The notes under the pieces were generated by a model. It ran no database searches. It had not been told where the DNA came from and saw only the letters and a program-made list of their open reading frames with translations. From the IMG/VR virus record IMGVR_UViG_2049941000_000254: a DNA stretch of 20,000 bases; one strand, 5' to 3'. Within the stretch, counting starts at the first letter, position 1, and every line of letters starts with the position of its first letter. The stretch comes from an uncultured virus (IMG/VR IMGVR_UViG_2049941000_000254). Taxonomy: Duplodnaviria; Heunggongvirae; Uroviricota; Caudoviricetes. The position numbers and the translations under genes were made by a program. Positions 2,051 to 17,602 of the stretch are shown piece by piece.

Positions 2051-2100
2051 TACCGTGTTCCACCTTCCCCAGGAAAACGGGGACCTGAGGGACCATCGTA
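2051..2100 (+). promoter_or_regulatory. Dispersed 50-bp element, copy 2
   Basis: ACCGTG 2052, GACCTGAGG 2082, CATCGT 2094. ATG at 2140. Confidence 0.85.
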
Positions 2101-2139
2101 TGGGCAACGAAACAAAAACAACTCAACAAGGAGACACTT

Positions 2140-2904
2140 ATGCCACAGGCTGCACACAACTTCTTCGAAAAGGAACTGAAACCTACCCTCGTCGATGTAT
2201 TCGGCGAAATCCTCGACTTCGTGACCTATGGTGACGAATGGTACCAGATTGGTGTCGAAAACGAAGGCGACATCGAGGACTGCGAATGGAAGGACCGCGA
2301 CGGCTTTTGGAGCCATAATAACGGCGGCGTTGAAATGTGTTTCACGCCGAACACCTCCATCCTGTACAACGGTTCCAGGCTCGCACCCTGCATCAAGAAG
2401 TGGGTCGATGACCAGTACGAATCCTGCAAGGAAGATGCCAAGGAAGACGAGGACTATCTCGCCTGGAAGGCCGAACAGGAAGAAAAGGGCGAAGACTCCG
2501 ATGTTGAAACCTGGCTCGCCGATACCGACGATGGTAACGAGTTCGAGAACAACCATGAGAACAACTGGATGGAAGCCTCCCCGTTCTGCAAGGTCGAGGC
2601 CTGGTTGCAGGGCCCGGACAGCTACCAGTTCCACGGCCCGGTCGAACCGAGTACGATCTTGAAACTCCACTTCGAGTTCTGCTTCAACGATGACCTCGGC
2701 TATGGCCGTCCGTACATTTCCTGGTGCCCCGGTGTCGGTGACCACCCGAAGTGTGAAGCCAACATCTTCTTCGAGGCCAAGGATGTCGAGAAGGTCCGTG
2801 AACTTATCAAGACCAAGATTCTCGAAATGGCAAAGTGCCCGGACAACGAGCAGCGCGAGAAGGAAGAGTTCTACACCGATGGACTGGATGACCGTCCGTT
2901 CTAA
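2140..2904 (+). CDS. Acidic hypothetical protein (254 aa)
   Basis: AAGGAG RBS, long ORF, strong codon bias, very D/E-rich. Confidence 0.85.
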   Translation: MPQAAHNFFEKELKPTLVDVFGEILDFVTYGDEWYQIGVENEGDIEDCEWKDRDGFWSHNNGGVEMCFTPNTSILYNGSRLAPCIKKWVDDQYESCKEDAKEDEDYLAWKAEQEEKGEDSDVETWLADTDDGNEFENNHENNWMEASPFCKVEAWLQGPDSYQFHGPVEPSTILKLHFEFCFNDDLGYGRPYISWCPGVGDHPKCEANIFFEAKDVEKVRELIKTKILEMAKCPDNEQREKEEFYTDGLDDRPF

Positions 2905-2940
2905 AAACAATTTTTAATTTTCAAAAACGAGGATAATATC

Positions 2941-3333
2941 ATGCAGAGATTCACACTTTCCAAATTTTACAGACCGGAAAATGTCGTGGAACACGCCGTA
3001 TCCCGAGTAAAGGAATGCGGTGGAACTCTCGACAAAATCCGCTACCCGAAACTCGGCGACGCAACCGGAGCAATCTGGGTCACCTTCACCAAGAACGGCA
3101 TGCCCGATGCGTTCCGCATCAGCAAGGGTCCCATGGGTCCCTACCGCCTGTTCGAACTCCCCGCGCTCACGTTCTTCCAGGACGATGATGTGGCGAAGTT
3201 CATGGTGGACACGCTCCGCGCCCTGCCGGACAAGGGTACACTCAAAACCACTAACAAGGCCGCATTCGAGGCAATCTGCCATTGGCTCCACAAGGCACCA
3301 CGGACGGTCATGAAGGAAATCAAGGAGGTATAA
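2941..3333 (+). CDS. Hypothetical protein (130 aa)
   Basis: GAGGA RBS, abuts the next gene. Confidence 0.8.
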   Translation: MQRFTLSKFYRPENVVEHAVSRVKECGGTLDKIRYPKLGDATGAIWVTFTKNGMPDAFRISKGPMGPYRLFELPALTFFQDDDVAKFMVDTLRALPDKGTLKTTNKAAFEAICHWLHKAPRTVMKEIKEV

Positions 3334-3702
3334 ATGTACAACAAGGCCAAACGCTACAACATCCCGACATACAAGGAATCTAAGGGCATGCGCGGGGAAC
3401 TCATTCGCAAGGTGGTCAACTATCTCCATCGGCTGAATGATGAAACCACCATCCCTACCTTCCGTCACAACGCGCACTTTGCCATCCTGACGGCGCACAT
3501 GATTGGGTCGAGGGAACGGTGCGATGACGGCACGATGATTGCATTGCAGTTCTATTCCCCGGAGGCCGACCGCATGCAGCATGTATGTGCCGAGGAACTG
3601 TATCGACAGGTCGAGGCATGGATGCCTCGCCGCATCGAGGACAAGCGCATCCGAGTACGCCTGGAGGGCACCTATGTGAGCCCGAGGTACTTCAAGGCAT
3701 AA
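3334..3702 (+). CDS. Hypothetical protein (122 aa)
   Basis: AAGGAGGT RBS, starts immediately after the upstream stop. Confidence 0.8.
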   Translation: MYNKAKRYNIPTYKESKGMRGELIRKVVNYLHRLNDETTIPTFRHNAHFAILTAHMIGSRERCDDGTMIALQFYSPEADRMQHVCAEELYRQVEAWMPRRIEDKRIRVRLEGTYVSPRYFKA

Positions 3703-3704
3703 CC

Positions 3705-3754
3705 AACCGTGTTTACCGGATCCCCCGAACAGGGTGACCCGGTGTCACATTGTA
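3705..3754 (+). promoter_or_regulatory. Dispersed 50-bp element, copy 3
   Basis: ACCGTG 3706, GACCCGGTG 3736, CATTGT 3748. ATG at 3784. Confidence 0.85.
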
Positions 3755-3783
3755 TGGGCAACATAACAAACAAGGAGACTATT

Positions 3784-4410
3784 ATGAAGAAGCTCTTGCT
3801 TATTACAATTACGTTGCTTCTTGCAACCGTGGCGTTTGCGGAAAAGCCATCAGGTGTATGGCGGTTTGCCCGTACCAATTCGATGAACTCCACTTCATGG
3901 AGTCATCCCGGTTCCATGATTAACATAGACAGCAAGGTGGTATGTCACTACGCTGGGCAGATCAACTTCCCGTTAAACCAGGAAGGTACTTGTGACAGAA
4001 TACTTATCCTGCACCTTGCGAGGGCGCAAGCCATGGAGGAAAAAGGCAAGATTATCGGGCTGTATTGCGCATACGACTGGTCATACCCGGACATGGGTGG
4101 CAACTTCTTGACCAATGATGTATATAGGGAGAATTGCCCGGATATACTGGCGACGGTAAACGGTGGATTCGACGTGATAGGGGAATATTGGTTCAAGCCG
4201 ATGGAAAACCAGGCCATTTATTATGAGGACGGTATCCCAATCAGGCAGACACTATCTAACACCAGGGAAGTTCTCAACAGGTTCGACAAGCGGTACGAGA
4301 ACCAAATCCGGTACCGAGACACATACGACTGGATACTCATGAGACCTGGATATGGATGGGACCAATGGGAACGGCCCGGAAGCGTATACGGTTCGCGAAT
4401 GGGTAAATAA
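3784..4410 (+). CDS. Secreted/periplasmic hypothetical protein
   Basis: AAGGAG RBS before ATG 3784. Classic signal peptide MKKLLLITITLLLATVAFA|EK. Confidence 0.8.
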   Translation: MKKLLLITITLLLATVAFAEKPSGVWRFARTNSMNSTSWSHPGSMINIDSKVVCHYAGQINFPLNQEGTCDRILILHLARAQAMEEKGKIIGLYCAYDWSYPDMGGNFLTNDVYRENCPDILATVNGGFDVIGEYWFKPMENQAIYYEDGIPIRQTLSNTREVLNRFDKRYENQIRYRDTYDWILMRPGYGWDQWERPGSVYGSRMGK

Positions 4411-4461
4411 AAAACGTTCCCGGAAACAATGAAATAGCTGATGCAATGCATATTGACGGCA

Positions 4462-4496
4462 ATGGTTGCCATGCGACCTGCCGTTTGCTACATTTT
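4462..4496 (+). promoter_or_regulatory. sigma70-like promoter with extended -10
   Basis: TTGCCA (4466-4471)-N17-TACATT (4489-4494) with TGn. Near-identical motif at 12557-12591. Confidence 0.7.
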
Positions 4497-4515
4497 AAGT
4501 AAAAAGAGGTGTATT

Positions 4516-5070
4516 ATGGATAAGGAACAATTAGAGAGACTTTTGAATGTGGTTAAGAACGCTGCTGAACAGTTCGGGGGTATATATTCCCGGATATNNN
4601 NNNNNNNTAAGAACTACTGGAAACTGGGAAAGGACCAATTCGGAGATACTCTGTGGATGCAGAAGCCCCGCATCTGCCCCAATGGATACTGGGAGGTGGC
4701 GATCGTATTTCATTACCCGAAAGGATGCCGCCCCGGGAAGGGGGACTCGCGTTTCTGCTCAATCATTGCGAATGAGCTGTCGTCGGCATCTTCTGCCATA
4801 TTCGAGGGCTTGATGCCGGATGATAAGCGGTTGCAGTTTGCGGAGATTATCCGGGCAATAGTTATCGCGTCCCGGTATTCCTGGATGCTCAAGAGGGGTG
4901 ATACCACCTTGGCACATGTGCCGGGGGAGGAACTTGCCCTAAACAAGCAGAAATCCAATCTGCCAGGTTTTATAAGTTCAGCAGTTCATGAAATAAGGAG
5001 AATCGACCATTTTGTCATCCCTGAACTGGTTAAATTGGCTGACAAGATGTTCAAACGGTCTACCGTGTGA
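4516..5070 (+). CDS. Hypothetical protein (contains 10-N gap)
   Basis: GAGGT RBS before ATG 4516. Open on both sides of the gap. Confidence 0.7.
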   Translation: MDKEQLERLLNVVKNAAEQFGGIYSRIXXXXKNYWKLGKDQFGDTLWMQKPRICPNGYWEVAIVFHYPKGCRPGKGDSRFCSIIANELSSASSAIFEGLMPDDKRLQFAEIIRAIVIASRYSWMLKRGDTTLAHVPGEELALNKQKSNLPGFISSAVHEIRRIDHFVIPELVKLADKMFKRSTV

Positions 5071-5110
5071 CCAAGGTCCCCCGATACGGGGGACCCGGTG
5101 TCATATCGTA
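5061..5110 (+). promoter_or_regulatory. Dispersed 50-bp element, copy 4
   Basis: ACCGTG 5062, GACCCGGTG 5092, TATCGT 5104. Perfect inner stem GGTCCCCC-GATAC-GGGGGACC. Confidence 0.85.
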
Positions 5111-5142
5111 GGGACATACAAAGGTATTGTCCACCCAAAGTG

Positions 5143-5171
5143 TTGCTAAGGATGTTGGAACGATATATAAT
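5143..5171 (+). promoter_or_regulatory. sigma70-like promoter
   Basis: TTGCTA-N17-TATAAT. Confidence 0.55.
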
Positions 5172-5194
5172 GATCGTGACGCTACCTATCCCAC

Positions 5195-5223
5195 AATATA
5201 GACTTTTATAGTATCTATGTCAA
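5195..5223 (-). promoter_or_regulatory. sigma70-like promoter, antisense orientation
   Basis: Minus strand TTGACA (5223-5218)-N17-TATATT (5200-5195). Confidence 0.55.
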
Positions 5224-5247
5224 GTAANNNNNNNNNNGAGAACAACC

Positions 5248-5448
5248 ATGGCACATTTACCACTAGATGAACGCTTCATCCCGCAGCCGCGCACCACCGT
5301 GGACGGCAAGCGGGTATGGTGCGTATATGACCGCGAGCGCAAGGGGTACTCCACCTACACTTGCCACGGCAAGTACAAGAGCAAGCGCGAGTGCCAAATG
5401 GCCATCGTGCTTTGGAATGTCCAAAAGGGGGAGAACTGGTTCCGATGA
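5248..5448 (+). CDS. Hypothetical protein (66 aa)
   Basis: ORF with typical codon bias. Stop overlaps the next start (ATGA). Confidence 0.7.
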   Translation: MAHLPLDERFIPQPRTTVDGKRVWCVYDRERKGYSTYTCHGKYKSKRECQMAIVLWNVQKGENWFR

Positions 5449-5699
5449 AACGCAAGACCTTCAAGTGCCAATTCAACTCCGCACAAGCCATGGACGAACG
5501 CAACGTCATCGGCGCGAAATATCACATGTCCTACGGCATCAACATCAACCGCATGGACATGATGAAAGGCATCCCGGAGAAGAAGCAGGAAGACTATGAC
5601 CAGAAATTCATCGAATGGTTCGTGAACTTCCATGCCGAACTACTCCACATCCAGGACTGGGACAGGTTCCCCGAANNNNNNNNNNGATTCTGCTTTTGA
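5445..5699 (+). CDS. Hypothetical protein (MKRKTFKCQF...; end uncertain because of gap)
   Basis: ATGA coupling, GGGGAG upstream, strong codon bias. Confidence 0.65.
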   Translation: MKRKTFKCQFNSAQAMDERNVIGAKYHMSYGININRMDMMKGIPEKKQEDYDQKFIEWFVNFHAELLHIQDWDRFPEXXXXFCF

Positions 5700-5765
5700 A
5701 GAAACGCGCAGAGGAAATCCACGAAGGACTTAACTTCAACAACTTGTGAACATGAAGGAAAATAA

Positions 5766-5909
5766 ATGAGACGTATCGAAATTAAACGAGACATCGCCGC
5801 GCATACCCCGGTATCCGAGGTGTTGAAAAAGTTACCGAAGACCCTTACCCTATTTGTCGGTCACCCGAAAGTTGGTAAGAGCCTTATACAGCACATCGCA
5901 GGAAAATAA
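5766..5909 (+). pseudogene. Truncated/internally deleted paralog of the 5910 gene (47 aa)
   Basis: 5757-5820 closely matches 5901-5964 (MRRIEIKRDIAAHTPVSE vs MRRIEIERDIATHTPVSE). Later fragments (accgaagac, gccttat, tacagcacatcg) also recur in the downstream gene. Confidence 0.65.
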
Positions 5910-6743
5910 ATGAGACGGATCGAAATTGAACGAGACATCGCTACGCATACCCCGGTATCCGAGGACATTCTGGACATGCTGAACAAGTTGAAAGCATGGA
6001 CACCGAAGACACTGGAACAGGTCATCGAGGTGGGCAACCGCCTTATCCACGCGGCAAACGAGGACATCTTTTACAGCACATCGAAAGAGCGCAAGGCAGA
6101 AAAGGTACCCTACTTCATGGACATGAAGGGGAAGATGATTAAGTACCCCAACGGCATCGCGCACTCCACCGAGTACATCTATGTCACGGGAGTCGAGATT
6201 GACGATAAGGAGTGGGAGACCACGGCCAACATTACCGGGGTTCGCTTATCCAAGTACAACCGCATCGGGAACGATGAAATCCAGTTGTACACCCTCCCTA
6301 TCCGTTTCAGTACCGTAGTTGACATGAAGGAAGATGCGGTCATCGTCCTGGTGTCAAATTACCGTGTCGAATACACCATCGTGTCCAATTTCGCCGAGTA
6401 CAAGGATGCCGTGGCCAGGATGAAAGCATTTATCCCCATGGTGCAGTACATCCCAGACTTTATGACCCGAGACATGGTAAAGCTTTCTTTACACAAGAAG
6501 ACCTTTACAAAGGGCCATGCCAAAAGCGATAATAAAAGAGGTAAACAATGCCAGAATCAGCCTACATCTACAACGACAAACAAGGCAACATCGAAGTCAT
6601 GCGCGGAGCCTTCGGCTATAACATCATCCTCACCCGCAACGATGGGAAATGGGACGGAAAGATGCACACAACGTCAGCATGTGTCGGGGACTTCTCGAAA
6701 GAGCGTCTCCAAGAAATTGCCACGAAACTCCAAGAGTTCGTAA
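5910..6743 (+). CDS. Hypothetical protein; last ~65 codons overlap the next gene and may be a spurious extension
   Basis: Long ORF, protein-like to about 6500, then out-of-frame overlap with 6548-6754. Confidence 0.7.
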   Translation: MRRIEIERDIATHTPVSEDILDMLNKLKAWTPKTLEQVIEVGNRLIHAANEDIFYSTSKERKAEKVPYFMDMKGKMIKYPNGIAHSTEYIYVTGVEIDDKEWETTANITGVRLSKYNRIGNDEIQLYTLPIRFSTVVDMKEDAVIVLVSNYRVEYTIVSNFAEYKDAVARMKAFIPMVQYIPDFMTRDMVKLSLHKKTFTKGHAKSDNKRGKQCQNQPTSTTTNKATSKSCAEPSAITSSSPATMGNGTERCTQRQHVSGTSRKSVSKKLPRNSKSS

Positions 6744-6754
6744 ACTCTATTTGA
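6548..6754 (+). CDS. Hypothetical protein, paralog A (68 aa)
   Basis: AGAGGT RBS. Close paralog immediately downstream. Confidence 0.8.
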   Translation: MPESAYIYNDKQGNIEVMRGAFGYNIILTRNDGKWDGKMHTTSACVGDFSKERLQEIATKLQEFVNSI

Positions 6755-6793
6755 TAGCCATACCAAAGGCGATATTCAACCCAAGAGGTAAAA

Positions 6794-7028
6794 ATGGCAA
6801 GTTCGGCCCCCATCTACAACGACAAGCAAGGTAACATCAGAGTAAGGCGCGGAGCCTTCGACTACAACCTCATCCTCACCCGCATTGNNNNNNNNNNNNN
6901 NNNNNNNNNNNNNNNNNNNNNNNNNNNNNNNNNNNNNNNNNNNNNNNNNNNNNNNNNNNNNNNNNNNCTCGAAAGAACGCCTTCAAGAAATCGTCACGAA
7001 ACTCCAAGAGTTCTTAAACTCGAATTGA
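6794..7028 (+). CDS. Hypothetical protein, paralog B (gap inside)
   Basis: AGAGGT RBS. IYNDKQGNI.V.RGAF.YN.ILTR and, after the gap, SKERLQEIVTKLQEFLNSN* (TGA 7026-7028) match paralog A. Confidence 0.75.
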
Positions 7029-7051
7029 TGACAAAATCGAGATTCAAAGAC

Positions 7052-7101
7052 TACCGTGTACACCAGGTGCCCCGTCCGTAGGCACCCGGTGTCGAATCGT
7101 A
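7052..7101 (+). promoter_or_regulatory. Dispersed 50-bp element, copy 5
   Basis: ACCGTG 7053, CACCCGGTG 7083, AATCGT 7095. Compensatory stem GGTGCC/GGCACC. Confidence 0.85.
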
Positions 7102-7125
7102 TCCGGTGCAACAAGCGAGGCAACT

Positions 7126-7380
7126 ATGACCATAACGCTCAATGACCCTATTCAGAAGAAGAGTATGAACAAGGAAGCCAACTCGAACGTGCTTGTATGC
7201 AAGACGAACATGTTCGGTGTGTTGAATGCTCTTGGTAACCGTGTGGACATTTTCGCCGGTATCAACTTCTTTGACCGGAAGAAGAAGCTTCTTCAGCGTA
7301 TCTTCCTAAAGTCACCTTATATCCGTTGTGCATTGTGGCTCGATAAAAAACGTATTAATTGTCTGGGGGTAAAACTATGA
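7126..7380 (+). CDS. Hypothetical protein (84 aa)
   Basis: GAGG RBS, follows element copy 5. Confidence 0.7.
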   Translation: MTITLNDPIQKKSMNKEANSNVLVCKTNMFGVLNALGNRVDIFAGINFFDRKKKLLQRIFLKSPYIRCALWLDKKRINCLGVKL

Positions 7381-7691: not shown

Positions 7692-7692
7692 C

Positions 7693-7742
7693 AACCGTGC
7701 TCACGACTTGCCCATTCAATATGGACCTGGTGGAGCATCGTA
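7693..7742 (+). promoter_or_regulatory. Dispersed 50-bp element, copy 6
   Basis: ACCGTG 7694, GACCTGGTG 7724, CATCGT 7736. ATG at 7774. Confidence 0.85.
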
Positions 7743-7773
7743 CTGGCATCAATAACTGATAGGAGATTAGAGA

Positions 7774-8967
7774 ATGCGACAGGAATATGCAGCAATTAAT
7801 GGTTGGCGCAAGCTCGCTGCCCCGATTCTGTGGAATGTTTTCAGTAAGCCCGTGTCCATCGACAGCGAGCATACTGACCGTACTGTAGCCATGAACGATG
7901 CCCTTACCAACCTTCATCTGAACGCCGAAGTTGTAGGTCTCAAGCAGGGACCCGTAATTACGCGCTACATGGTCAAGGTGGGCGATGGAATTCGCGTACG
8001 CAATCTCCGCAACAACCTTGAAGATATTGCTATGCGACTCGGCGTACCCAGGAAATCCATTCGCATCGAATGCAACGATGGCCTTGTGGGCATCGAAGTT
8101 CCAAACGACATCCGTTCCGTAGTTCCGTGCCGTACAATCGTGACACCTGATATCTGCGAAAAGATGCAGTTCGGATCACTCAATATCGGGATGGGTGTCG
8201 ATATCATCGGCAACCCGGTGAAATTCAATCTCGCAAAAGCTCCGCATATGCTAGTGGCCGGACAGACTGGGTCGGGCAAGAGTGTGTTTCTCAACTCGCT
8301 CATTTGCAACCTGCTGATGAACAATCATCCCGATGAAATCGAACTTGTGCTTATTGACCCGAAGGGCACTGAAATGCAGGCTTACTCCATACTCAAGACT
8401 GTTAAGGTCATTAACAATGTCCATGATGCGGTCAAGAAGCTTGCATCCCTTGTCGATGTAATGGAAGAACGTTACAGAATGTTTACCGATGCAACTGCTA
8501 AATTTGGCCGTCCAGTCCGTACTCTCGATGACTATATGGAAACCGTCACCGACTATTCTAAGGATGTCAATAGACGCAAACGCATTGTAGTGGTCATTGA
8601 TGAAGTTGCCGACCTCATGGCATGTGACCGACAGGGAATGGAAACAAGCATATCCAGACTCGCGGCGAAGGCACGCGCTGCAGGTATCCATCTGGTGCTT
8701 GCCACTCAACGCCCGTCACGTGATGTCATCACGGGTACCATCAAGGCGAACCTGCCGACCCGCATTGCATTCCGTCTTCCGTCACAGGTTGACTCCAAGA
8801 CAATCCTTGACGAAATCGGGGCCGAGTCGCTTCTTGGACGTGGCGACATGCTTTTCAAGACTGCTGACGGGGTTACACGTCTGCATGGGTGCTGGATGTC
8901 CGATGACGATATCATGAACTTCATCAACATGTGCAGTACAATTTACAAGACTATCAAGCCTTGGTAA
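7774..8967 (+). CDS. ftsK: FtsK/SpoIIIE-family DNA translocase motor (alpha+beta domains only)
   Basis: GPVITRY and VGIEVPN (alpha domain), PHMLVAGQTGSGKS (Walker A), LIDPK, VVVIDEVADLM (Walker B), KARAAGIHLVLATQRPS, GAESLLGRGDMLF. Confidence 0.95.
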   Translation: MRQEYAAINGWRKLAAPILWNVFSKPVSIDSEHTDRTVAMNDALTNLHLNAEVVGLKQGPVITRYMVKVGDGIRVRNLRNNLEDIAMRLGVPRKSIRIECNDGLVGIEVPNDIRSVVPCRTIVTPDICEKMQFGSLNIGMGVDIIGNPVKFNLAKAPHMLVAGQTGSGKSVFLNSLICNLLMNNHPDEIELVLIDPKGTEMQAYSILKTVKVINNVHDAVKKLASLVDVMEERYRMFTDATAKFGRPVRTLDDYMETVTDYSKDVNRRKRIVVVIDEVADLMACDRQGMETSISRLAAKARAAGIHLVLATQRPSRDVITGTIKANLPTRIAFRLPSQVDSKTILDEIGAESLLGRGDMLFKTADGVTRLHGCWMSDDDIMNFINMCSTIYKTIKPW

Positions 8968-8982: not shown

Positions 8983-9450
8983 ATGAAGAAACTGTTTAAA
9001 TGGATTGCCAAGAAGAACGCCAATGAACGCAAGGCCCATCCTGTCCGCTACAATATCGTGTTGATTGTGCTTATGCTGATATTGAACACAATGTTGGTAC
9101 TGGCCGCTATTGTCCCGGAAGACAGATTGGAACACCCGATAAGGTTATTGGTGTTCTTCGCATTCTCGATTGAATATGGTGGCATAATCTGCCATCTGCT
9201 TGATAGAGTCATCGGTCGATATACCAATGACTGGCGCATAGCGAACATTGTCAACCCGCAAATCATTCAGCTCATTCAATCATTGGAAAAGGCTGAACAG
9301 GATATCAACGAGGGAAAAATTGCATGGCTAGGAAATTTCTACAATCCGTCGAAGGAGCGCGTTGAGACCACCCGAGTACCTATCGAGGAATACCTTGTTG
9401 ACCCGAAACCGGCGGAAGAACCAACCGTATCTGGGAAAACACCGGAATAA
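8983..9450 (+). CDS. Membrane protein (two predicted TM helices)
   Basis: AAGGAG RBS. Hydrophobic segments IVLIVLMLILNTMLVLAAIV and IRLLVFFAFSIEYGGIICHLL. Confidence 0.75.
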   Translation: MKKLFKWIAKKNANERKAHPVRYNIVLIVLMLILNTMLVLAAIVPEDRLEHPIRLLVFFAFSIEYGGIICHLLDRVIGRYTNDWRIANIVNPQIIQLIQSLEKAEQDINEGKIAWLGNFYNPSKERVETTRVPIEEYLVDPKPAEEPTVSGKTPE

Positions 9451-9472
9451 GTTGACCTGGTGGTACATCGTA
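9423..9472 (+). promoter_or_regulatory. Dispersed 50-bp element, copy 7 (upstream of sigma gene)
   Basis: ACCGTA 9424, GACCTGGTG 9454, CATCGT 9466. Overlaps the end of the upstream CDS and has a weak hairpin. Confidence 0.8.
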
Positions 9473-9518: not shown

Positions 9519-10298
9519 ATGCTTAACTGCACATCATATCTTCGCATTCAACTATCCAAGGCTTATGAAGCCGCAAAGAAAGCCATTTCCTCTGCAGACA
9601 TTGAAAAGGAATACATCAAGAAGGCGAAGGCGGGATCGCAGGTAGCCAGGGATACTTTGTTTAACCTTTACATCCCGTTTGTCATCAGTTACGCTCGCTC
9701 AAGTACCTATACAATGTATAGCGGAGACATGGGTGACCTTATCAGCGCTGCCGCTATCGGTTTCGATCGAGCCATCGAACTATTCGATAGCACCCTCGGT
9801 TATGAATTTGGGTGCTATTACAAATGGCACATCAAGAACGCTATGAACAAGGAGCTTTATGGCGATTCCGTAGTTGCTGTCCCAGAAAACTTGCAGAAAC
9901 CAGCAAAGAACCCAGATGGGAAGCAAATGCTTGATGAAGATGGCCTTCCGGTCAATCGCAATCCGGTAAAAGTGATTTCGGGCGACAGTTTGGTAGGTGA
10001 TGATGATTCCAAGACTACGCTATTGGAAACTTTGAGTGAGGAAGGCGAAAATGGAGCCGAACAAGCCGAAGAACGAAATCGGGCAGAACTTCTCCACGAA
10101 CTGTTATCATCCCTCCCTGAAATTGAATGCAATGCAATTAAGCAGATGGTGATGAACGATGACCATGTATCCACCCGTGAATGGGGCGAAAGCCACGGCT
10201 GCTCCCACGAATGGGCCCGCAAGGTCAAGAACCGCGCATTGAAGCGTCTCCGCGAGAAGATGGGTGAAATGTACATCGAGGATCGTTTGGCGGTGTAA
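9519..10298 (+). CDS. sigma70-family RNA polymerase sigma factor (divergent)
   Basis: Region 1.2/2: AKAGSQVARDTLF...DLISAAAIGFDRAIELFDSTLGYEFGCYYKWHIKNAM. Region 3.2: GDDDSKTTLLETL. Region 4: LSSLPEIE...STREWGESHGCSHEWARKVKNRALKRLR. Confidence 0.9.
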   Translation: MLNCTSYLRIQLSKAYEAAKKAISSADIEKEYIKKAKAGSQVARDTLFNLYIPFVISYARSSTYTMYSGDMGDLISAAAIGFDRAIELFDSTLGYEFGCYYKWHIKNAMNKELYGDSVVAVPENLQKPAKNPDGKQMLDEDGLPVNRNPVKVISGDSLVGDDDSKTTLLETLSEEGENGAEQAEERNRAELLHELLSSLPEIECNAIKQMVMNDDHVSTREWGESHGCSHEWARKVKNRALKRLREKMGEMYIEDRLAV

Positions 10299-10324: not shown

Positions 10325-10325
10325 T

Positions 10326-11075: not shown

Positions 11076-11260
11076 GTCAACTACGCACCGCCTAAAGGCG
11101 GTGAGCTTGTAATGCTGCCTATGTTTCCATGGCAGGCTTACAGTACGATCGGACGGTTGACAGACGCCCTGCCCTCCAGGTTTTCAGAGTGCCGTCGAGC
11201 GGCATCCTGAACGAGAAGGGATGTTTGCTCTTCCGAGCTATGTTGATTGCGGCATTCCAG
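11076..11260 (-). ncRNA. Putative TnpB omega/reRNA scaffold (5' limit approximate); guide is the flank from 11075 downwards
   Basis: reRNAs are known to overlap the tnpB 3' end and run through the element right end. Boundaries are inferred. Confidence 0.55.
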
Positions 11261-12303
11261 TCGGAATCGAGGACGGTGCCGTTCTTGCAGTAGAAGCGGC
11301 GGTTCTTCCTGGTTCCGTTTTTCTTTCCGGTAGTGCAATCGGTCTTGCTTGTCATGAACGGTGAAACTGTTTCTACCCGCTTGCCAGCGAGCAGTGCCTT
11401 GTATGACAAGATTTGTTTTAACTTGTAGAACGGTACCTGGGAAATCCTACGGTTGTGGTCTTTCCGCTTCTTGCCGTCCTTGGTCTTTGAAGTCTTCTGC
11501 TTTATTTTCGAAAGGTCTTCGAGCACGATGATGCTTGCGTCGGTGCTTTCGATGATGGCGTTCGCCACTCGGCAGCACATGTCGCCCGACTGCCGCTGCT
11601 CCGTCTTGCATAGCTTGCTCCGATGCCTGTACGCACTCTTCGTGCCCTTCTTCTGCAAGCAACGCTTCAGGTAGCGAACCCTACGCCGTCTTGCATTGTA
11701 TTCCTTGTCGTCGAGCATCAACCCGTCTGAAGTTATCGCGAAACGGCGCTCACCCAAATCAACTCCTATGCAATTTTCGTCCCGCAAAGGTACTTCCGGA
11801 ACCTCGAACGACAGCGCCAGGAAGAACCTGCCATCACGCTTGAATATCAGCGGATCGTGCACGGGATACTTTCCGAACATCTCTTCCAGCTTAGGGTATT
11901 TTACGATATCGGCATCGACCCGCTTTCCTGGCTTGGACGAACATAATGAAATCGAAGATAGGCTTAGACGGGAATACAGGCGCTTGTCAAGACGCATCGA
12001 AAGATTCTTCTTGGCCGGAACCTTGTGCTCGACATGACCGTTGCTGTTGATTGAACGGAACGCCGATATGCAGTCCTTGTATATCTTGATTATCCCTTGA
12101 GACGGTATCGTCGGGAACTTCTCGCGCAATTCGTAGTACACTGCGTTGTGCACGGACTGCAAGTCCAGGTGTACCTTACGGGTGGTTATGATGTCAGCAC
12201 ATTCGTTGTACGCAAGTCGAGACACTTCAAGAAGGCTCGTCCAGTATTCCTGGCCGGCTGTATCCTTGAATTTTAGCTCGGCATTGTACGTTATCGTACT
12301 CAT
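11119..12303 (-). CDS. tnpB: RNA-guided endonuclease TnpB
   Basis: RuvC-I IGVDLGE, RuvC-II IVLEDLS, RuvC-III DSDWNAAINI. 394 aa. The zinc-finger cysteines are partly lost. Confidence 0.93.
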   Translation of the reverse strand: MSTITYNAELKFKDTAGQEYWTSLLEVSRLAYNECADIITTRKVHLDLQSVHNAVYYELREKFPTIPSQGIIKIYKDCISAFRSINSNGHVEHKVPAKKNLSMRLDKRLYSRLSLSSISLCSSKPGKRVDADIVKYPKLEEMFGKYPVHDPLIFKRDGRFFLALSFEVPEVPLRDENCIGVDLGERRFAITSDGLMLDDKEYNARRRRVRYLKRCLQKKGTKSAYRHRSKLCKTEQRQSGDMCCRVANAIIESTDASIIVLEDLSKIKQKTSKTKDGKKRKDHNRRISQVPFYKLKQILSYKALLAGKRVETVSPFMTSKTDCTTGKKNGTRKNRRFYCKNGTVLDSDWNAAINIARKSKHPFSFRMPLDGTLKTWRAGRLSTVRSYCKPAMET

Positions 12304-12556: not shown

Positions 12557-12591
12557 ATGGTTGCCACCTAAGCCCAAATATGCTACATTTT
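12557..12591 (+). promoter_or_regulatory. sigma70-like promoter with extended -10
   Basis: ATGG-TTGCCA (12561-12566)-N17-TACATT (12584-12589). Twin of 4462-4496. Confidence 0.7.
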
Positions 12592-12632
12592 GGGTATGAA
12601 ATGATAAACTGTGTAAAAACGGAGATTTTTTC

Positions 12633-13442
12633 ATGTCGATTACAAGTGAAATACAGGCCAACCTGAACATGATGAAGATGTACCCCGGGCTCAACGGAAA
12701 GGTGTCCGCGTACCTCGAATCCATCATGAGCACTAACCCCATGGCCGCCTACGGCTACGAGCACAACGGCTCGAAGCTGCAACCGCTCACGGAAGCTACC
12801 GTGGACCGTATCCTCGATCACGGAAAGAATGGCATGATTATCATTACTTCCGACCGTGGCGAACGTACGCCCGCAGAGAACTACCAGAAGCGCAATGAGC
12901 TGCTCGGGGACATCAAGGCAATGAACCTCTCGTACATCGTCGTCTACGGCGGGTACAGGGACAAGATGAAGTCCCCTCCCCTCACCGTGAACGGGGAAAC
13001 CTCCTTCGTCATCCCCGCACACGACCGCAACGGCAACCTGGTCCCCTGGGACGTGCTGTACCAGTTTGCCAAGGACATGTGTGCCAAGTATGACCAGGAT
13101 TCCGTGCTCGTCCAGGAACCCGGCAAGGGACCGAAGTACATCGACAAGGACGGCAACGAAGTGACCGACCTCAGCGGTCCGGTCGTAAAGAACGACCTTA
13201 CCCAGGAATACTTCTCCTCGCTCATCAAGTCCAAGCACTATGACGAGGCGCATCCGGACAGGCTGAAACGGTTCAGCTTCACGGAACCGGCAAAGGATGA
13301 ACCGGGGAAACCCGCCCCGAAGACCGAAGCCGCCTTCTTCGTGAACCCTCCGCCCTGCACCCAGGGTGAAATGAGGCGCCGCGGTGCCGAAGGCGAAATC
13401 TTCGCGCTTTGGGACGAAATCCCCAGGGACGTGCGGATCTAA
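12633..13442 (+). CDS. SAM lyase (T3 SAMase)-like protein with terminal extensions
   Basis: IIITSDR...EN, GGYRD...ETSFVI and MCAKYDQDSVLV resemble, in order, T3 SAMase motifs as recalled (VLVSAFR...VN, GCYRE...EEKTVRV, ACNEWEQDCVLV). GGAG RBS. Confidence 0.65.
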   Translation: MSITSEIQANLNMMKMYPGLNGKVSAYLESIMSTNPMAAYGYEHNGSKLQPLTEATVDRILDHGKNGMIIITSDRGERTPAENYQKRNELLGDIKAMNLSYIVVYGGYRDKMKSPPLTVNGETSFVIPAHDRNGNLVPWDVLYQFAKDMCAKYDQDSVLVQEPGKGPKYIDKDGNEVTDLSGPVVKNDLTQEYFSSLIKSKHYDEAHPDRLKRFSFTEPAKDEPGKPAPKTEAAFFVNPPPCTQGEMRRRGAEGEIFALWDEIPRDVRI

Positions 13443-13453
13443 CGAACGTAAAC

Positions 13454-13486
13454 AAGAAACCCACCGGTGATTCCGGTGGGTTTTTT
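13454..13486. terminator. Intrinsic terminator, probably bidirectional
   Basis: AAACCCACCGG-TGATT-CCGGTGGGTTT-TTT between convergent genes. Confidence 0.9.
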
Positions 13487-13501
13487 AATGCCCGTATTCC
13501 G

Positions 13502-13713
13502 TTAATGAATGTTGGCCTGCCATATGAACAGATGGCGCAGAATTGGCGNNNNNNNNNNACCAGGGACAGATATTTCCCTAGTCCGAAGCTTGTATAGGCC
13601 ACATATCCGGCCACGAACGATGGCCCAAACATCAATACAAACTCTGCCACAAACAGAAGAACAAATGCGATGGCTGGCCAACAGTCCTTGTATTCCTCGA
13701 TAATCTTTTTCAT
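13502..13713 (-). CDS. Small membrane protein (gap inside; end inferred)
   Basis: AGGAG RBS, hydrophobic AIAFVLLFVAEFVLMFG. A post-gap frame PILRHLFIWQANIH* stops just before the terminator. Confidence 0.6.
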
Positions 13714-13722
13714 TTTTAACTC

Positions 13723-13848
13723 CTAGTTCTTGATACCCCTTGTGCAGCCTTCTATGTCATCATCCTGGATGGCGACCATATCAGGAACCTCTTCCGAGTA
13801 GATGAAATCTATGTGGACAGTCGATTGTGTTCCGGTTTTTGTGTCCGG
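13723..13848 (-). CDS. 3' end of a hypothetical protein (start in gap)
   Basis: PDTKTGTQSTVHIDF...GIKN*, ending next to the RBS of the following gene. Confidence 0.5.
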   Translation of the reverse strand, partial: PDTKTGTQSTVHIDFIYSEEVPDMVAIQDDDIEGCTRGIKN

Positions 13849-14318
13849 ANNNNNNNNNNNNNNNNNNNNNNNNNNNNNNNNNNNNNNNNNNNNNNNNNNN
13901 NNNNNNNNNNNNNNNNNNNNNNNNNNNNNNNNNNNNNNNNNNNNNNNNNNNNNNNNNNNNNNNNNNNNNNNNNNNNNNNNNNNNNNNNNNNNNNNNNNNN
14001 NNNNNNNNNNNNNNNNNNNNNNNNNNNNNNNNNNNNNNNNNNNNNNNNNNNNNNNNNNNNNNNNNNNNNNNNNNNNNNNNNNNNNNNNNNNNNNNNNNNN
14101 NNNNNNNNNNNNNNNNNNNNNNNNNNNNNNNNNNNNNNNNNNNNNNNNNNNNNNNNNNNNNNNNNNNNNNNNNNNNNNNNNNNNNNNNNNNNNNNNNNNN
14201 NNNNNNNNNNNNNNNNNNNNNNNNNNNNNNNNNNNNNNNNNNNNNNNNNNNNNNNNNNNNNNNNNNNNNNNNNNNNNNNNNNNNNNNNNNNNNNNNNNNN
14301 NNNNNNNNNNNNNNNNNN

Positions 14319-14636
14319 GGGCACCAGGGCCTCGAATTCGGCCTGGGTAATCTCCCAGAACTTGCGCGGGCCCAGGCCCTTGCAATCGAATTCCCCGAGC
14401 TCGTTGCTGACCTCATCAGGATAACGGTCAAACAGGAGCTTGGCCGTGCTTATGCAGCGCCTCGTAGGCGAGCTTATGATGGTATTCCTGGCTTCATCAG
14501 GTATATGGCATCCCACACGTTCTTCCCAGTCATCTGGCTTGTCGAGGATAGTTATGTCGGCGTCTTCATAACTTGCAGCCATGGCGCCGGCCAGATTTGC
14601 CGATGTCGGCGCATGTCTGATGAAATATATTTTCAT
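14319..14636 (-). CDS. Histidine phosphatase (phosphoglycerate mutase-like) family, 5' part
   Basis: KIYFIRHAPT (RHG-like motif), ISSPTRRCISTA, LGEFD. Truncated by the gap. Confidence 0.85.
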
Positions 14637-14718
14637 TTTTCGTTTTCTTTATTTCAAAAGTCTTTTAATGAAACTTGAAATACAGGATGCACTAGCAAAT
14701 TCGGTACAATCTTATTCA

Positions 14719-15150
14719 TCATTCGAGACCTTTCCTGGATTCCTTATCCAATTTATGGCCTACTAGCCATAGGTAAATTTTCCACATGAAGTTGTTTCTC
14801 GGGGAGAACCATATCGACCTGTCGTCGATATAGAAGTCACACCGGATTTTTCGTCCGAAATTTTCATGTTCCCACCCATGCTCAACATAGTCACCGATGA
14901 CATTGGAGTTGACATTGTCGAGATGCAGTCCATGTCTTGCACAGAACTTGACGGCATCGTTAAGGTATTCCCCATCGGGGAAATCCTTTCCGCCATAGTT
15001 TTCACGGCAGGTCCATAAGATAATCGTATCACCTTTTTTCTGACGTTTTTTCAGCCATTCAATGATTGTATTGTTGGGTAGGCCATACCCAATATTTGGC
15101 CATCCTCTATTGCATATCGTGCCGTCAAAGTCTACTGCGATTGTACTCAT
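14719..15150 (-). CDS. HAD-superfamily hydrolase (capless type)
   Basis: IAVDFDGTI (motif I), LWTCR (II), RK..CDFYIDDR (III/IV). Confidence 0.85.
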   Translation of the reverse strand: MSTIAVDFDGTICNRGWPNIGYGLPNNTIIEWLKKRQKKGDTIILWTCRENYGGKDFPDGEYLNDAVKFCARHGLHLDNVNSNVIGDYVEHGWEHENFGRKIRCDFYIDDRSIWFSPRNNFMWKIYLWLVGHKLDKESRKGLE

Positions 15151-15669
15151 TTTCCCGCCTTCTTCTGTTTAGGTTGCGCCTTCTTGTCCTGTTCCGCGCT
15201 CTCCTTCAATTCGTCAAAGATTTCCTTGTACGGGAGCGGCTTGAAATTTTTGTCGAGCTTTGCCNNNNNNNNNNGCTGCAATCACAAAATCGAGCTCGAC
15301 AACGAACAGTGCACTCTTGCTGGTCTTGGTCTTCTTGAAGATGAACATCTTTTCCTTTTCATCATAGGACAATCCGTAGTCCTTGGCGGCCTTGAAAAGT
15401 TCCGTCATCTTCTGCTTGTTCTGTATGAAGGAATAGATGGCCTCTTCCTCCTTCGCGGATGCGGTCATCTTGATCAGCACATGGCGCACCTGGGACAGGT
15501 CATAGTCGCGGTCGGCATTGCCGTCAAACCACTTGATAGGAAACTCCATCGAGAATCCGGACTTGCTCCTGAAAACGAATGCCTGGTCGGTTTCATTGGT
15601 TACTAGGTCGAAACCGTTGTCCTTGAACATCCTCTTGATTGCGTCTTTCTTGATATAGGTCGGCATCAT
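15147..15669 (-). CDS. Hypothetical protein (gap inside; true end likely 15147)
   Basis: Post-gap frame AKLDKNFKPLPYKEIFDELK...KAGK* overlaps the HAD start (ATGA). Confidence 0.65.
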
Positions 15670-16061
15670 TTCCTCGCCGTAATAATGGTTATATTGTTAT
15701 ACTTGGCACCCGAACCACCTTTGAAGGCCTGCATTTCCATTTCCTGGAACAGTTCAGCTGCATTCCGGTAAGTCTTTCCGTTGCATACGATATGGTTTTC
15801 CTTCGCGATAGAGTAATCGGCAACAGCCTTGGCCATGTCGCTCTCGTTCCGATATATGGGACGCCTGGCGTAGCCATACCCGTCAAGCGTAGTGATGTCC
15901 TGGTACGAATAGGCCGGATCCATGAGCTTACCCGCACAGTCCGGCTGGAACACCGGCCTCAGGTTAATCTTGCTCTCCTCGTGAGCGCGGACCCAAATCT
16001 TGCGCCCCATGAGGCCAAGGATGCACCCGTAAAGTCCGTATTTTAGCCAAAATTTACACAT
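15666..16061 (-). CDS. Hypothetical protein (start uncertain)
   Basis: Open frame from MCKFW, coupled to the next gene. Confidence 0.65.
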   Translation of the reverse strand: MCKFWLKYGLYGCILGLMGRKIWVRAHEESKINLRPVFQPDCAGKLMDPAYSYQDITTLDGYGYARRPIYRNESDMAKAVADYSIAKENHIVCNGKTYRNAAELFQEMEMQAFKGGSGAKYNNITIITARK

Positions 16062-16264
16062 TTTACGTNNNNNNNNNNACACAGAAAACGCTTCAAGGTA
16101 AAACTTACGGGCTTGGAAAGCTTCACGGACACNNNNNNNNNNCCCCGCGGGGGTGGAACGAAAGGTTCCGGGGGACCGGGGGGACCCTGGATGTAACCCC
16201 CTTGTGAAATAACGTAGCCCCTTGTCCTATACGGCCTTCTGACACCCTGGCCCAAAATACGGGG

Positions 16265-16316
16265 CCACCGTGTCCTACGGCCTCCGTGGACCGGGGGACC
16301 TGAGGATACATCGTGG
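16265..16316 (+). promoter_or_regulatory. Dispersed 50-bp element, copy 8
   Basis: ACCGTG 16267, GACCTGAGG 16297, CATCGT 16309. Heads a divergent gene cluster. Confidence 0.9.
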
Positions 16317-16343
16317 GAATGTTCAGTTGAAAAGGAGATCTAT

Positions 16344-16712
16344 ATGGCAACATCTATGGGAGTATTTACCGCAGTCATGTATCGTCAGCATCTGCATGAT
16401 AGCATTGTTGCCCGTGCGAAGTCCGAGCACCCCGATATGGGCACAGACGAACTGCGTGCGGTGTCCGTGAAGCTTTCCAAGCCCGTAAGTTTTACCTTGA
16501 AGCGTTTTCTCTGCGACCCGCTGAAAGTGAAAATCACTGCTATGGTGGCAGGTTCTGACGGGGTGCCGCGCATGGTCTGCGAATACAATGGCAAGGAAAG
16601 CCGCATTGACTTTGGCGAGATGCCGAACCATACCCTGCACAGGGTGTTGGAGCTGCTCAAGGCGCCAAAGACCGATATGAACGAATTGGTGTTCAAGGAA
16701 TTGAGCAAGTAG
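16344..16712 (+). CDS. Hypothetical protein (122 aa)
   Basis: AAGGAG RBS, follows element copy 8. Confidence 0.8.
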   Translation: MATSMGVFTAVMYRQHLHDSIVARAKSEHPDMGTDELRAVSVKLSKPVSFTLKRFLCDPLKVKITAMVAGSDGVPRMVCEYNGKESRIDFGEMPNHTLHRVLELLKAPKTDMNELVFKELSK

Positions 16713-16760
16713 GGAGAATGGTGCCCATATGGGCATCAGTTTCCACTGGAAACAATATGA

Positions 16761-16812
16761 CCACCGTGTATCGGCTGTCCCACGATTATGGGGACCTGAG
16801 GATACATCGTGG
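16761..16812 (+). promoter_or_regulatory. Dispersed 50-bp element, copy 9
   Basis: ACCGTG 16763, GACCTGAGG 16793, CATCGT 16805. Confidence 0.9.
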
Positions 16813-16873
16813 GAATGTAAATGAGGCAAGGGGAACCGCCTTTGAGAGTTCCCGACAAAAACGGAGTTCAACT

Positions 16874-17014
16874 ATGAAATATGGTGTTTTCGCAAATCTC
16901 ATCACGGGCAAGCAGCTTTTCAGCGTCCACCGCACCGAATCGGGTGCACAGAAGGCCTGCGCCAAGGCAGGCAAGAATGGGGCATCTTTCATGGTGCTCC
17001 CCATCAAGAAGTAA
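16874..17014 (+). CDS. Small basic protein (46 aa, MKYGVFANL...)
   Basis: GGAG RBS, lies between element copy 9 and a terminator. Confidence 0.7.
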   Translation: MKYGVFANLITGKQLFSVHRTESGAQKACAKAGKNGASFMVLPIKK

Positions 17015-17027
17015 CCATTAACCACAA

Positions 17028-17068
17028 AGGGCGGAACCCCTTACTCCCGGGGGTTCCGCCCTATTTTT
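17028..17068 (+). terminator. Intrinsic terminator
   Basis: AGGGCGGAACCCCT-loop-GGGGGTTCCGCCCT-ATTTTT. Confidence 0.85.
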
Positions 17069-17089
17069 GGGCATTTGTGGGTGCCGGAA

Positions 17090-17141
17090 CCACCGTGTCC
17101 GGAGTTACACCGGAACACGGGGATCTGATGGTACATCGTGG
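17090..17141 (+). promoter_or_regulatory. Dispersed 50-bp element, copy 10
   Basis: ACCGTG 17092, GATCTGATG 17122, CATCGT 17134. Directly after a terminator. Confidence 0.88.
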
Positions 17142-17166
17142 GGATGTTCAACGAAAGGAGATGCAT

Positions 17167-17343
17167 ATGTCGCAGGAAAGCAAGAAAATCGTCGGTTTCA
17201 TCAAGAACCTCGCAATCACCAATTCCGCCTATGTGGCGGTCTTGAACCGCCTCAAAATGATGACTGCCGACAAGCAGGAACGCTTTTTGAGCAAGTTTCA
17301 CGGAATGGAACTGTCTGATTTTATGATGGCTGTGGAGGGCTAA
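17167..17343 (+). CDS. Small hypothetical protein (58 aa)
   Basis: AAGGAG RBS 6 nt before ATG 17167. Confidence 0.75.
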   Translation: MSQESKKIVGFIKNLAITNSAYVAVLNRLKMMTADKQERFLSKFHGMELSDFMMAVEG

Positions 17344-17345
17344 AA

Positions 17346-17504
17346 ATGAAAAATAATTTTAAGAGTGCTGAAATTACGACCGACCGCACCAAAATGGCTC
17401 GTTCGTTCGCAAGGCAGATGGGCGTGAACGCACAGAAGGTCAAGGCCGAACGCAACCGCATTGACCGAGAGAAGAGGGAGAGGGTTCTTATGCGTGGATT
17501 CTAG
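17346..17504 (+). CDS. Small basic protein (52 aa, MKNNFKSAEI...; not in the ORF track)
   Basis: GGAGG RBS, starts 2 nt after the upstream stop, fills the space before copy 11. Confidence 0.6.
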   Translation: MKNNFKSAEITTDRTKMARSFARQMGVNAQKVKAERNRIDREKRERVLMRGF

Positions 17505-17550
17505 GGGAGAGGTGCTCAGGTGAACACTAATTCCCTCATGGACAGTGTTC

Positions 17551-17602
17551 CCACCGTGTATCATCTGTCCCCCGATCTTGGGGACCTGAGGATACATCGT
17601 GG
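17551..17602 (+). promoter_or_regulatory. Dispersed 50-bp element, copy 11
   Basis: ACCGTG 17553, GACCTGAGG 17583, CATCGT 17595. Confidence 0.9.

Follow-up and report, generated by a model that had tools for sequence, protein, structure and literature searches.

Bacteriophage T7 carries irregular hairpins of about 50 nucleotides (nt), each with an internal loop, as RNase III sites between the genes of its early transcription unit, and integron attC sites, which vary in length, lie at the 3′ ends of gene cassettes and need the IntI integrase. In bacteriophage N4, three promoters have a stem of 5–7 base pairs (bp) and a 3-nt loop that is centred at −11 and carries conserved purines, and the polymerase that uses them is an injected protein of 3,500 amino acids (PMC4496689). 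In the promoter–stem-loop (PeSL) cassettes of T4-like phages, the promoters are sigma-70-like (−35, N17, −10) and the stem–loop upstream of the promoter is a terminator (PMC4122927). Here we analyse a 48-nt element that recurs between the genes of a 20,000-nt stretch of DNA (the window) from an uncultured member of the Caudoviricetes (IMG/VR IMGVR_UViG_2049941000_000254). The source is an uncultivated jumbo phage with a T4-like tail that infects herbivore-gut bacteria and belongs to a lineage with genomes of 200–250 kb.

The first-pass annotation of this DNA took the repeat for a covarying imperfect hairpin, with a conserved C:C mismatch, a G:T pair and an asymmetric bulge. Given its length, spacing, orientation and place ahead of genes, we lean towards a different reading, in which the element would be a class-specific phage promoter cassette recognized on duplex DNA, with a palindrome acting at the DNA level.

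Anatomy and distribution of the 48-nt element

The repeat is real: the pattern ACCGTG-N25..50-ATCGT has eight matches in the window, all on the + strand and all exactly 48 nt long (that is, ACCGTG-N37-ATCGT), whereas 0.23 are expected from shuffled sequence and none of 200 shuffles reached eight. Relaxing one base in either box adds the copies at 3706 and 9424, which makes ten, and one further copy is cut by masked N. All window copies are on the + strand, and each stands in the gap before a + strand gene. When viral contigs were scanned for the pattern, with no match for the reversed-pattern control, three related records emerged: G001 of 203 kb, the 42-kb fragment G002, and G003, which has 253 kb and a completeness rating of 99%. 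They are distinct from the window, and the patches in common are 77–89% identical. A weight-matrix scan then gave 159 copies, with 10 in the window, 31 in G001, 48 in G002 and 70 in G003, every one of them on the strand of the gene; no hit scored between 16 and 20, and none on the opposite strand scored above 16. The copies are restricted to a single gene block (9.6–82.1 kb in G003 and 160.7–201.1 kb in G001), and they intrude on coding sequence only at the 3′ ends of genes.

With a wider pattern the element is present on six IMG/VR contigs in total. There was no DNA match to it in the GenBank phage collection, and an Rfam scan of the window returned no family for it, the sole hit with E ≤ 1 being an unrelated small nucleolar RNA model elsewhere (E 0.61). 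Nor did we find the motif described in the literature on jumbo-phage early promoters and hairpins, PeSL cassettes or N4 hairpin promoters.

Every copy has the same layout, ACCGTG, 36 nt and CAnCGT, for a total of exactly 48 nt. Counted over 158 distinct 48-mers, C2 and C3 are invariant (158 of 158) and seven further positions nearly so: C46 and T48 (157 each), A44 (156), T5 (150), G6 (147), G4 (144) and G47 (143). Position 45 is unconstrained (T in 92, A in 29, C in 27 and G in 10). The boxes are separated by 36 nt in 126 box pairs, and spacers of 35 nt (12 pairs) and 37 nt (17 pairs) are at background level. Between the boxes the sequence tends to a GC-rich palindrome, with a right arm (29–39, GG.CC.GG.G) that is well conserved by information content and a left arm that is far less so. 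Downstream of the right box the copies fall into two classes, CGT-ATGGGCA (class I) and CGT-GGGCATGTTCA (class II).

The copies in the window are as follows, with the gene that each would serve; z compares folding with that of shuffles.

593–609, + strand: left part of the cut copy (ACCGTGTTCC...), with masked N from 610
2052–2099, + strand: copy 1, class I; predicted start at 2106; gene 2140–2904; orthologous copies in G002 and G001, in which the flanks are kept and the interior is replaced
3706–3753, + strand: copy 2, right box CATTGT; gene 3784–4410; part of the covariation alignment
5062–5109, + strand: copy 3, overlapping the stop codon of gene 4516–5070; gene 5248–5448
7053–7100, + strand: copy 4, with the GTGCCC/GGCAC allele; gene 7126–7380; z −2.61
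7694–7741, + strand: copy 5; FtsK/SpoIIIE-like gene 7774–8967
9424–9471, + strand: copy 6, with ACCGTA and no hairpin, its left half inside gene 8983–9450; sigma factor gene
16267–16314, + strand: copy 7, class II, first to follow a block of minus-strand genes; gene 16344–16712
16763–16810, + strand: copy 8, class II; gene 16874–17014
17028–17062, + strand: canonical intrinsic terminator with a 14-bp stem and a T-run, 29 nt upstream of copy 9
17092–17139, + strand: copy 9, class II, between that terminator and gene 17167–17343
17553–17600, + strand: copy 10, class II; long gene ending at 19218

A fourth contig of 253 kb (L137) has a first copy homologous to copy 7. Directly upstream of this first class II element, the window, G003 and L137 have in common a conserved non-coding stretch of G/C runs, A/T runs and short direct repeats (16143–16266, and again 19230–19311, in the window; 82100–82600 in G003), which could be a genome end, an origin or the region that enters the cell first.

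The distribution bears directly on the idea of a small, selfish palindromic repeat of the REP or MITE kind that plays no part in expression. Such a repeat would suit phages with many TnpB genes, and the imperfect palindrome of the element, with its conserved head, would agree with it. A selfish repeat is nevertheless hard to reconcile with 159 of 159 copies on the gene strand, a single gene block, exclusion from coding regions apart from the 3′-end overlaps, and a fixed distance to the Shine–Dalgarno (SD) sequence and start codon (described below), and we regard it as extremely improbable.

The window carries many small + strand genes without assigned function, as well as FtsK/SpoIIIE-like, sigma, TnpB and S-adenosylmethionine (SAM)-lyase-like genes. 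The TnpB gene (11119–12303, minus strand) has its closest relatives, at 70% identity, in metagenome-assembled genomes (MAGs) of Bacteroidales and Paludibacteraceae, and because of this similarity the phage probably infects a member of the Bacteroidales. TnpB genes are numerous in the phage lineage and occur at seven or more places in G003. Two tandem pairs of paralogous small genes have nearly identical 5′ ends (5766–5909 with 5910 onward, and 6548–6754 with 6794–7027).

Gene-start context and the case for a promoter

The element keeps a narrow distance to the start of the gene behind it. A pyrimidine at position 54 followed by a purine at position 55 is found in 149 of 159 copies, in both classes, and this step lies 7 nt after T48 of the right box. 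An SD sequence follows 151 of the 159 copies, with a median of 17 nt from position 48 to the SD start (interquartile range (IQR) 16–18.5) and of 29 nt from position 48 to the start codon (IQR 28–31). In the window the AAGGAG sequence is strong and stands 13–20 nt behind the element (for example, 2128–2135 and 16332–16338). Bacteroidales are generally held to make little use of SD pairing.

Terminators are enriched on the other side. Of 157 copies, 37 have a canonical T-run terminator in the preceding 130 nt, compared with 42 of 476 control windows (odds ratio 3.2, P = 5 × 10−6; two copies were dropped for N in the flank), typically 20–30 nt before element position 1. The copies so preceded are 34 of 87 in class II, at about 25 nt, and 3 of 70 in class I. 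A gene that follows a terminator needs a promoter of its own, and the element would supply it, being the sole conserved sequence in the gap. A dispersed terminator repeat, AGTGCCCAnnTGGGCACT followed by a T-run, is found 20–30 nt upstream of many class II elements in G002 and G003.

A second context involves homologous genes for tRNA-Arg(CCG). In G002 an element stands 22 nt ahead of the gene, and in G001 a sigma-70-like promoter (TTGCCA...TATATT) stands ahead of it, so that the element and a sigma-70-like promoter occupy one slot ahead of the same tRNA.

These observations suggest a mechanism in which each copy would be the promoter of the next gene or tRNA, and the copies together would define one temporal gene class. 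The right box (CAnCGT, 43–48) would act as a −10-like element, in which A at the second base and T at the sixth are invariant and the third base is free; this pattern and the distance to the Y54–R55 step fit the −10 and start-site geometry of sigma-70-family promoters. Transcription would begin at the purine of the 54/55 step, giving a leader of about 22 nt in which AAGGAG precedes the start codon. Recognition on duplex DNA would involve the left box, at about −54 to −49 relative to the transcription start, as well as the right arm GG.CC.GG.G, which would explain why the 36-nt spacing is constant. On top of this the palindromic interior may form a second layer at the DNA level, as a site for a symmetric regulator or as an extrudable cruciform. 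Selection would maintain part of its self-complementarity, and templated mutation together with gene conversion among the copies would maintain the rest.

The window also holds a candidate reader and a second kind of promoter:

9519–10298, + strand: phage sigma-70-family factor, putative reader of the element (PHROG 351, 2.6e-30; Pfam Sigma70_r2)
4466–4494, + strand: sigma-70-like promoter, TTGCCA-N17-TACATT plus a TG extension; conserved ahead of one and the same gene in all four phages
12561–12589, + strand: another promoter of this sigma-70-like class, ahead of the SAM-lyase-like gene 12633–13442

The likely reader would be host RNA polymerase carrying this sigma factor, which aligns to SigA and RpoS from region 2 through region 4 and among GenBank phage proteins has only a partial match of 34%, to a cyanophage sigma. 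The factor might first be made from the promoter at 4466, which lies about 5 kb upstream of its gene on the same strand, with no strong terminator between. G003 encodes T4-like tail proteins and a late sigma resembling T4 gp55. A cascade can be envisaged in which host polymerase would use the sigma-70-like class, the phage sigma would then switch on the 48-nt class and the gp55-like factor would drive late genes; the assignment of promoter classes within it could be the reverse.

The second class is very regular (TTGCCA-N14-TGCTAYATT, usually followed by T(T)G) and is spread over the rest of the genomes, with about 60 more sites in G001–G003. Some of its members lie on the block strand at or inside the element blocks (202123, 175371 and 164721 in G001; 4466 in the window). 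An ATG often follows only 6–7 nt after the promoter, which suggests leaderless mRNAs, and we take its −10 part to resemble the Bacteroidetes TAnnTTTG element. Near-consensus sigma-70-like sites also occur at 5143–5171 (+ strand) and 5223–5195 (minus strand, 11 of 12 matches), within the 126 nt (5121–5246) that separate copy 3 from gene 5248; this gap is 16 nt in the contigs of relatives. The SAM-lyase-like gene, which possibly has an anti-restriction function, is followed by a bidirectional terminator at 13457–13483.

Searches for a phage-encoded polymerase were negative within their scope. PF00940 and PF00562 had no match in G001, G002 or G003, the PF00940 search being a weak test, as it also matched none of the control genomes. 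No phage RNA polymerase was found in G003 by PHROG and Pfam scans of 14 large proteins and PHROG scans of 147 others, a set that lies outside the open reading frames (ORFs) at 24–82 kb and six boundary-crossing ORFs, and a DxDGD-type motif was absent from G003 ORFs of at least 300 amino acids. In two Bacteroidales MAGs the element pattern occurred once, not above the reversed control, and the strict pattern of the second class also occurred once; neither motif is enriched there, and the comparison marks neither class as host-like.

Several observations weigh against a promoter read on duplex DNA. The 158-copy consensus has no conserved −35-like hexamer 16–18 bp upstream of CAnCGT, and a scan with the sigma-70 consensus calls none of the ten window copies, yet calls both TTGCCA-N17-TACATT sites. 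We know of no citable sigma specificity that CAnCGT would fit, and the sigma-70-like class could be the true target of the phage sigma, in which case no known reader would remain for the element. In class I, where only 3 of 70 copies have a terminator ahead of them, the element may act inside long read-through transcripts. Finally, of 20 sequencing runs one is filed as RNA and another taken as RNA by a guess, each with a small share, and assembled contigs of relatives from these two cross copies 1 and 3; as contigs merge transcripts, do not show starts, ends or strand and may include DNA carry-over, they say nothing on expression. Recognition on duplex DNA leaves the covariation at position pairs 8:41, 9:40 and 17:31, described below, unexplained. 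Sigma-54 and extracytoplasmic function (ECF) promoters were also considered and rejected, their spacings, judged by eye, not fitting the consensus of the element.

The palindromic interior

Covariation was assessed on 150 ungapped copies, the best of 158 distinct 60-mers; one copy crossing a locus boundary and the seven lowest-scoring copies, including that at 9424, were left out. The structure examined pairs 74.7% of cells in this alignment, compared with 68.8% in shuffles (0 of 500 as high) and 36.5–54.2% in slid controls, and the covariation score is 0.222, as against 0.145 in shuffles and at most 0.149 with slid partner columns. Two measures that are robust to relatedness among copies are at shuffle level: pairs in which both sides change number 13 (12.3 in shuffles), and further pair types number 46 (44.9 in shuffles). 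On this alignment covariation holds for the score and for the paired cells, and not for the measures that discount relatedness.

When permutation was confined to copies of the same genome and downstream class, three pairs, 8:41, 9:40 and 17:31, kept their covariation (each P < 0.0002); 10:39, 14:34 and 16:32 were marginal. The signal at 20:28, at 21:27 and at the closing pair −1:49 was gone, and with it the T/A versus C/G co-change that had been proposed for the closing pair (P = 0.94). Recurrent alleles at the covarying positions are GCC/GGC, ATC/GAT, TCC/GGA, GTC/GAC and GTCCCC/GGGGAC versus GTGCCC/GGGCAC. Because stem alleles are shared among genomes, the independent compensatory events may be few.

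No pair within the two boxes covaries. The boxes had been thought to pair with each other; they are partly complementary, with no compensatory change, and C2 is invariant while G47 varies. C3 does stand opposite C46 throughout (158 and 157 of 158 distinct copies, respectively), as claimed. The supposed G4:T45 pair, by contrast, is not conserved, since position 45 is free and does not covary with position 4. What looked like a conserved C:C mismatch and G:T pair is more plausibly a matter of two sequence boxes with some chance complementarity. The annotation's inference of selection on structure is partly supported, in that selection or templated mutation would account for the self-complementarity at a few interior pairs.

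Other parts of the earlier description stand. The named stems are present: TGAC/GTCA and GGTCCC/GGGACC at 5062, CTC/GAG at 7694, TATC/GATA at 16763 and 17553, and GGTGCC/GGCACC at 7053. The right arm exceeds the left by one base, with i + j = 49 in the outer register and i + j = 48 in the inner. The copy said to fold poorly is that at 9424, which folds worse than shuffles (z +0.65). A G at element position 22 is found in 9 of the 10 window copies, as noted before, and in only 88 of 158 across the family.

Folding varies widely. With RNA parameters the mean minimum free energy (MFE) is −21.95 kcal mol−1, compared with −14.73 in shuffles, and 139 of 158 copies form a single hairpin. With DNA parameters an end-to-end register of at least 8 pairs is present in 94 of 158 copies and lacking in 64, and z ≤ −2 is reached in 83 and missed in 75. 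Four of the ten window copies reach z ≤ −2.5, among them copy 3, which has the best palindrome of the window (a 9-bp apical stem, z −2.55), and copy 10, which has its best end-to-end hairpin (z −3.22). The copies at 2052, 16267 and 17092 favour a hairpin in the left half. Loop sequence and size are variable, and the pairing register slips between i + j = 47 and 50. The hairpin is missing or weak in about 40% of copies, whereas the boxes and the 36-nt spacing stay constant.

The palindrome shows little sign of having been shaped as RNA. Single mismatches in otherwise Watson–Crick stems are G·T in 11 cases and A·C in 11; a structure selected as RNA should favour G·U, and this equality does not indicate such selection. 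The sense strand folds better than the antisense by 0.6 kcal mol−1 (−21.95 versus −21.33; P about 0.02–0.03), with 181 versus 135 G–U pairs. Element MFE does not differ between copies that have a terminator upstream (−21.9 kcal mol−1) and copies that lack one (−22.0 kcal mol−1; P = 0.98), so the palindrome is no substitute terminator. We rejected the possibility that the hairpin terminates the upstream gene: it has no T-run, separate terminators lie upstream of it, and its strength is unaffected by them. Being strand-symmetric and independent of upstream terminators, the signal points to DNA rather than RNA, and a role in RNA is unlikely in class II units preceded by a terminator. The data support a self-complementarity that is kept, at a few interior pairs, by selection or by templated mutation.

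An RNA function could still be framed in another way, with a few sigma-70-like promoters producing long polycistronic RNAs in which the hairpins are processing or stabilizing sites between cistrons, like the early RNase III sites of T7. The sigma-70-like promoters on the block strand, the RNA-library contigs that run through copies 1 and 3 and the slight sense-strand advantage in folding and in G–U pairs would all suit such an arrangement, and a stem of about 20 bp is roughly the size of an RNase III substrate. Against it stand the T-tailed terminators that precede 34 of 87 class II copies by about 25 nt, with palindromes behind them that are equally strong, the copy that precedes a tRNA gene where a relative has a promoter, the equal numbers of G·T and A·C mismatches, the invariant length and the poor folding of 40% of copies. 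There was no Rfam match either, and we found no phage RNase III gene, although the host enzyme could act. On balance we think an RNA element quite unlikely.

If the palindrome acts as DNA, the element might be a hairpin-dependent promoter in the manner of the N4 early promoters, extruded from supercoiled DNA and used by a multisubunit host polymerase or an unrecognized phage polymerase. Interior pairs that covary within genomes, and a palindrome signal that is strand-symmetric and indifferent to upstream terminators, are what such a promoter would lead one to expect. In N4, stem bases that are not conserved may change provided that they still pair, and placing a hairpin between promoter boxes makes activity depend on supercoiling (PMC4496689). 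By arithmetic on the consensus, extrusion of the apical stem alone (15–33) would leave the boxes 17 bp apart. Yet 64 of 158 copies have no end-to-end hairpin and 75 fall short of z ≤ −2; the total length is fixed, though a hairpin would tolerate changes in loop length; the loops vary in sequence and size, unlike the 3-nt loop of N4; and the searches of the three records and of G003 proteins found no N4-like or other phage polymerase. We hold this explanation to be unlikely. A related and equally doubtful proposal is that a multisubunit bacterial polymerase redirected by a phage sigma depends for its activity on the GC-rich palindrome of about 36 nt between two A.CGTR boxes at invariant spacing, so that extrusion, or a symmetric factor, would switch about 70 genes together.

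Turnover of copies and comparison with known systems

The interior of the element evolves much faster than its boxes. In 14 orthologous pairs of copies, defined by the same downstream gene at 72–89% identity over 200 nt, the boxes are 0.84 identical and the interiors 0.49, and interiors of random pairs are 0.50 identical between genomes and 0.58 within a genome. The clearest case is copy 1 and its G002 orthologue, with 95% identity in the flanks, 100% in the boxes and 40% in the interior. That orthologous interiors are as unlike as those of random pairs implies fast turnover together with homogenization within each genome. Gene conversion among copies, co-evolution with a factor specific to the genome or templated (quasi-palindrome) mutation might be responsible, and the last of these would also explain covariation without selection.

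Copies also behave as points of rearrangement. In a DNA contig from another sample, position 2099, the last base of copy 1, is joined to 5122, 13 nt after copy 3, with 3 kb removed, and another contig carries a copy repeated in tandem. These joints raise the question of whether the element is the recombination site of a cassette system, with copies as crossover points that move or delete small gene cassettes, as attC sites do and as has been proposed for PeSL cassettes. The homogenization of interiors within genomes (0.58 versus 0.50) could be seen in the same light, and T4-type phages do have indels flanked by PeSL cassettes (PMC4122927). As for the nearby recombinase or HUH nuclease that the annotation had suggested looking for, a search for tyrosine recombinases (PF00589), whose control matched 14 of 14 genomes, found none in the three records, one of which is the 99% complete G003, and a Y1 transposase is present only in G003 (186545–186922), beside a TnpB gene and far from the element block. 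The fixed length and the fixed distance to the SD sequence and start codon point instead to a role in expression, and dispersed 48-nt repeats would recombine in any case, so the joints are no proof of a recombination function, which we consider very unlikely.

A promoter cassette read on duplex DNA remains the interpretation that we lean towards. The element offers a regulon marker for about 30–70 genes per genome, a sequence handle for the temporal class of otherwise unannotated genes, and its copies also behave as recombination points at which gene cassettes are added or removed. If the phage sigma reads it, the pair would form an orthogonal sigma–promoter system for Bacteroidales; if extrusion is required, it would represent the first promoter of the hairpin type beyond the N4 virion-polymerase system and would extend promoter recognition that depends on DNA structure.

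The analogues first listed for the repeat each share something with it, and it lacks at least one defining feature of each of three of them, namely N4 promoters, attC sites and T7 RNase III sites. Like the T7 RNase III sites, the element is an irregular hairpin of similar size between genes; unlike them, it is strictly 48 nt long, has terminators just upstream, can take the promoter slot of a tRNA gene and shows no G–U bias. It resembles attC in its conserved outer boxes, variable self-complementary core, conserved unpaired bases, presence as one site per gene and genome-specific flavour, and differs in its fixed length, its tie to the start of the downstream gene, the lack of an integrase in our searches and boxes free of compensatory change. 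With the N4 promoters it shares conserved bases combined with free paired bases, a position ahead of one temporal gene class and a plausible structure at the DNA level; it differs in having about 30–70 copies per genome, about 15–20 potential pairs, variable loops and weak folds in 40% of copies, and no gene for an N4-type polymerase was found (PF00940 in none of three records, a weak test, and PHROG and Pfam scans of G003).

The likeness to PeSL cassettes goes furthest. In both, short composite cassettes occupy nearly every gap in a block of small, variable genes of a large myovirus (PMC4122927); the cassette ends in an SD sequence and start codon; a stem–loop is associated with a promoter; indels lie nearby, here the 2099–5122 joint between two copies; and the sequence flavour differs by phage lineage. 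The element differs in that it has no sigma-70-like hexamers about 17 bp apart and in that its palindrome sits between two boxes at a fixed 36 nt and lacks a T-run, the T-tailed terminators being separate and further upstream. PeSL is therefore the closest known concept in role and context, and the element fails both of its defining sequence features: two boxes at an invariant 36 nt, no −35 hexamer and a fast-evolving, self-complementary palindrome between them make up an architecture unlike any promoter class that we have found described.

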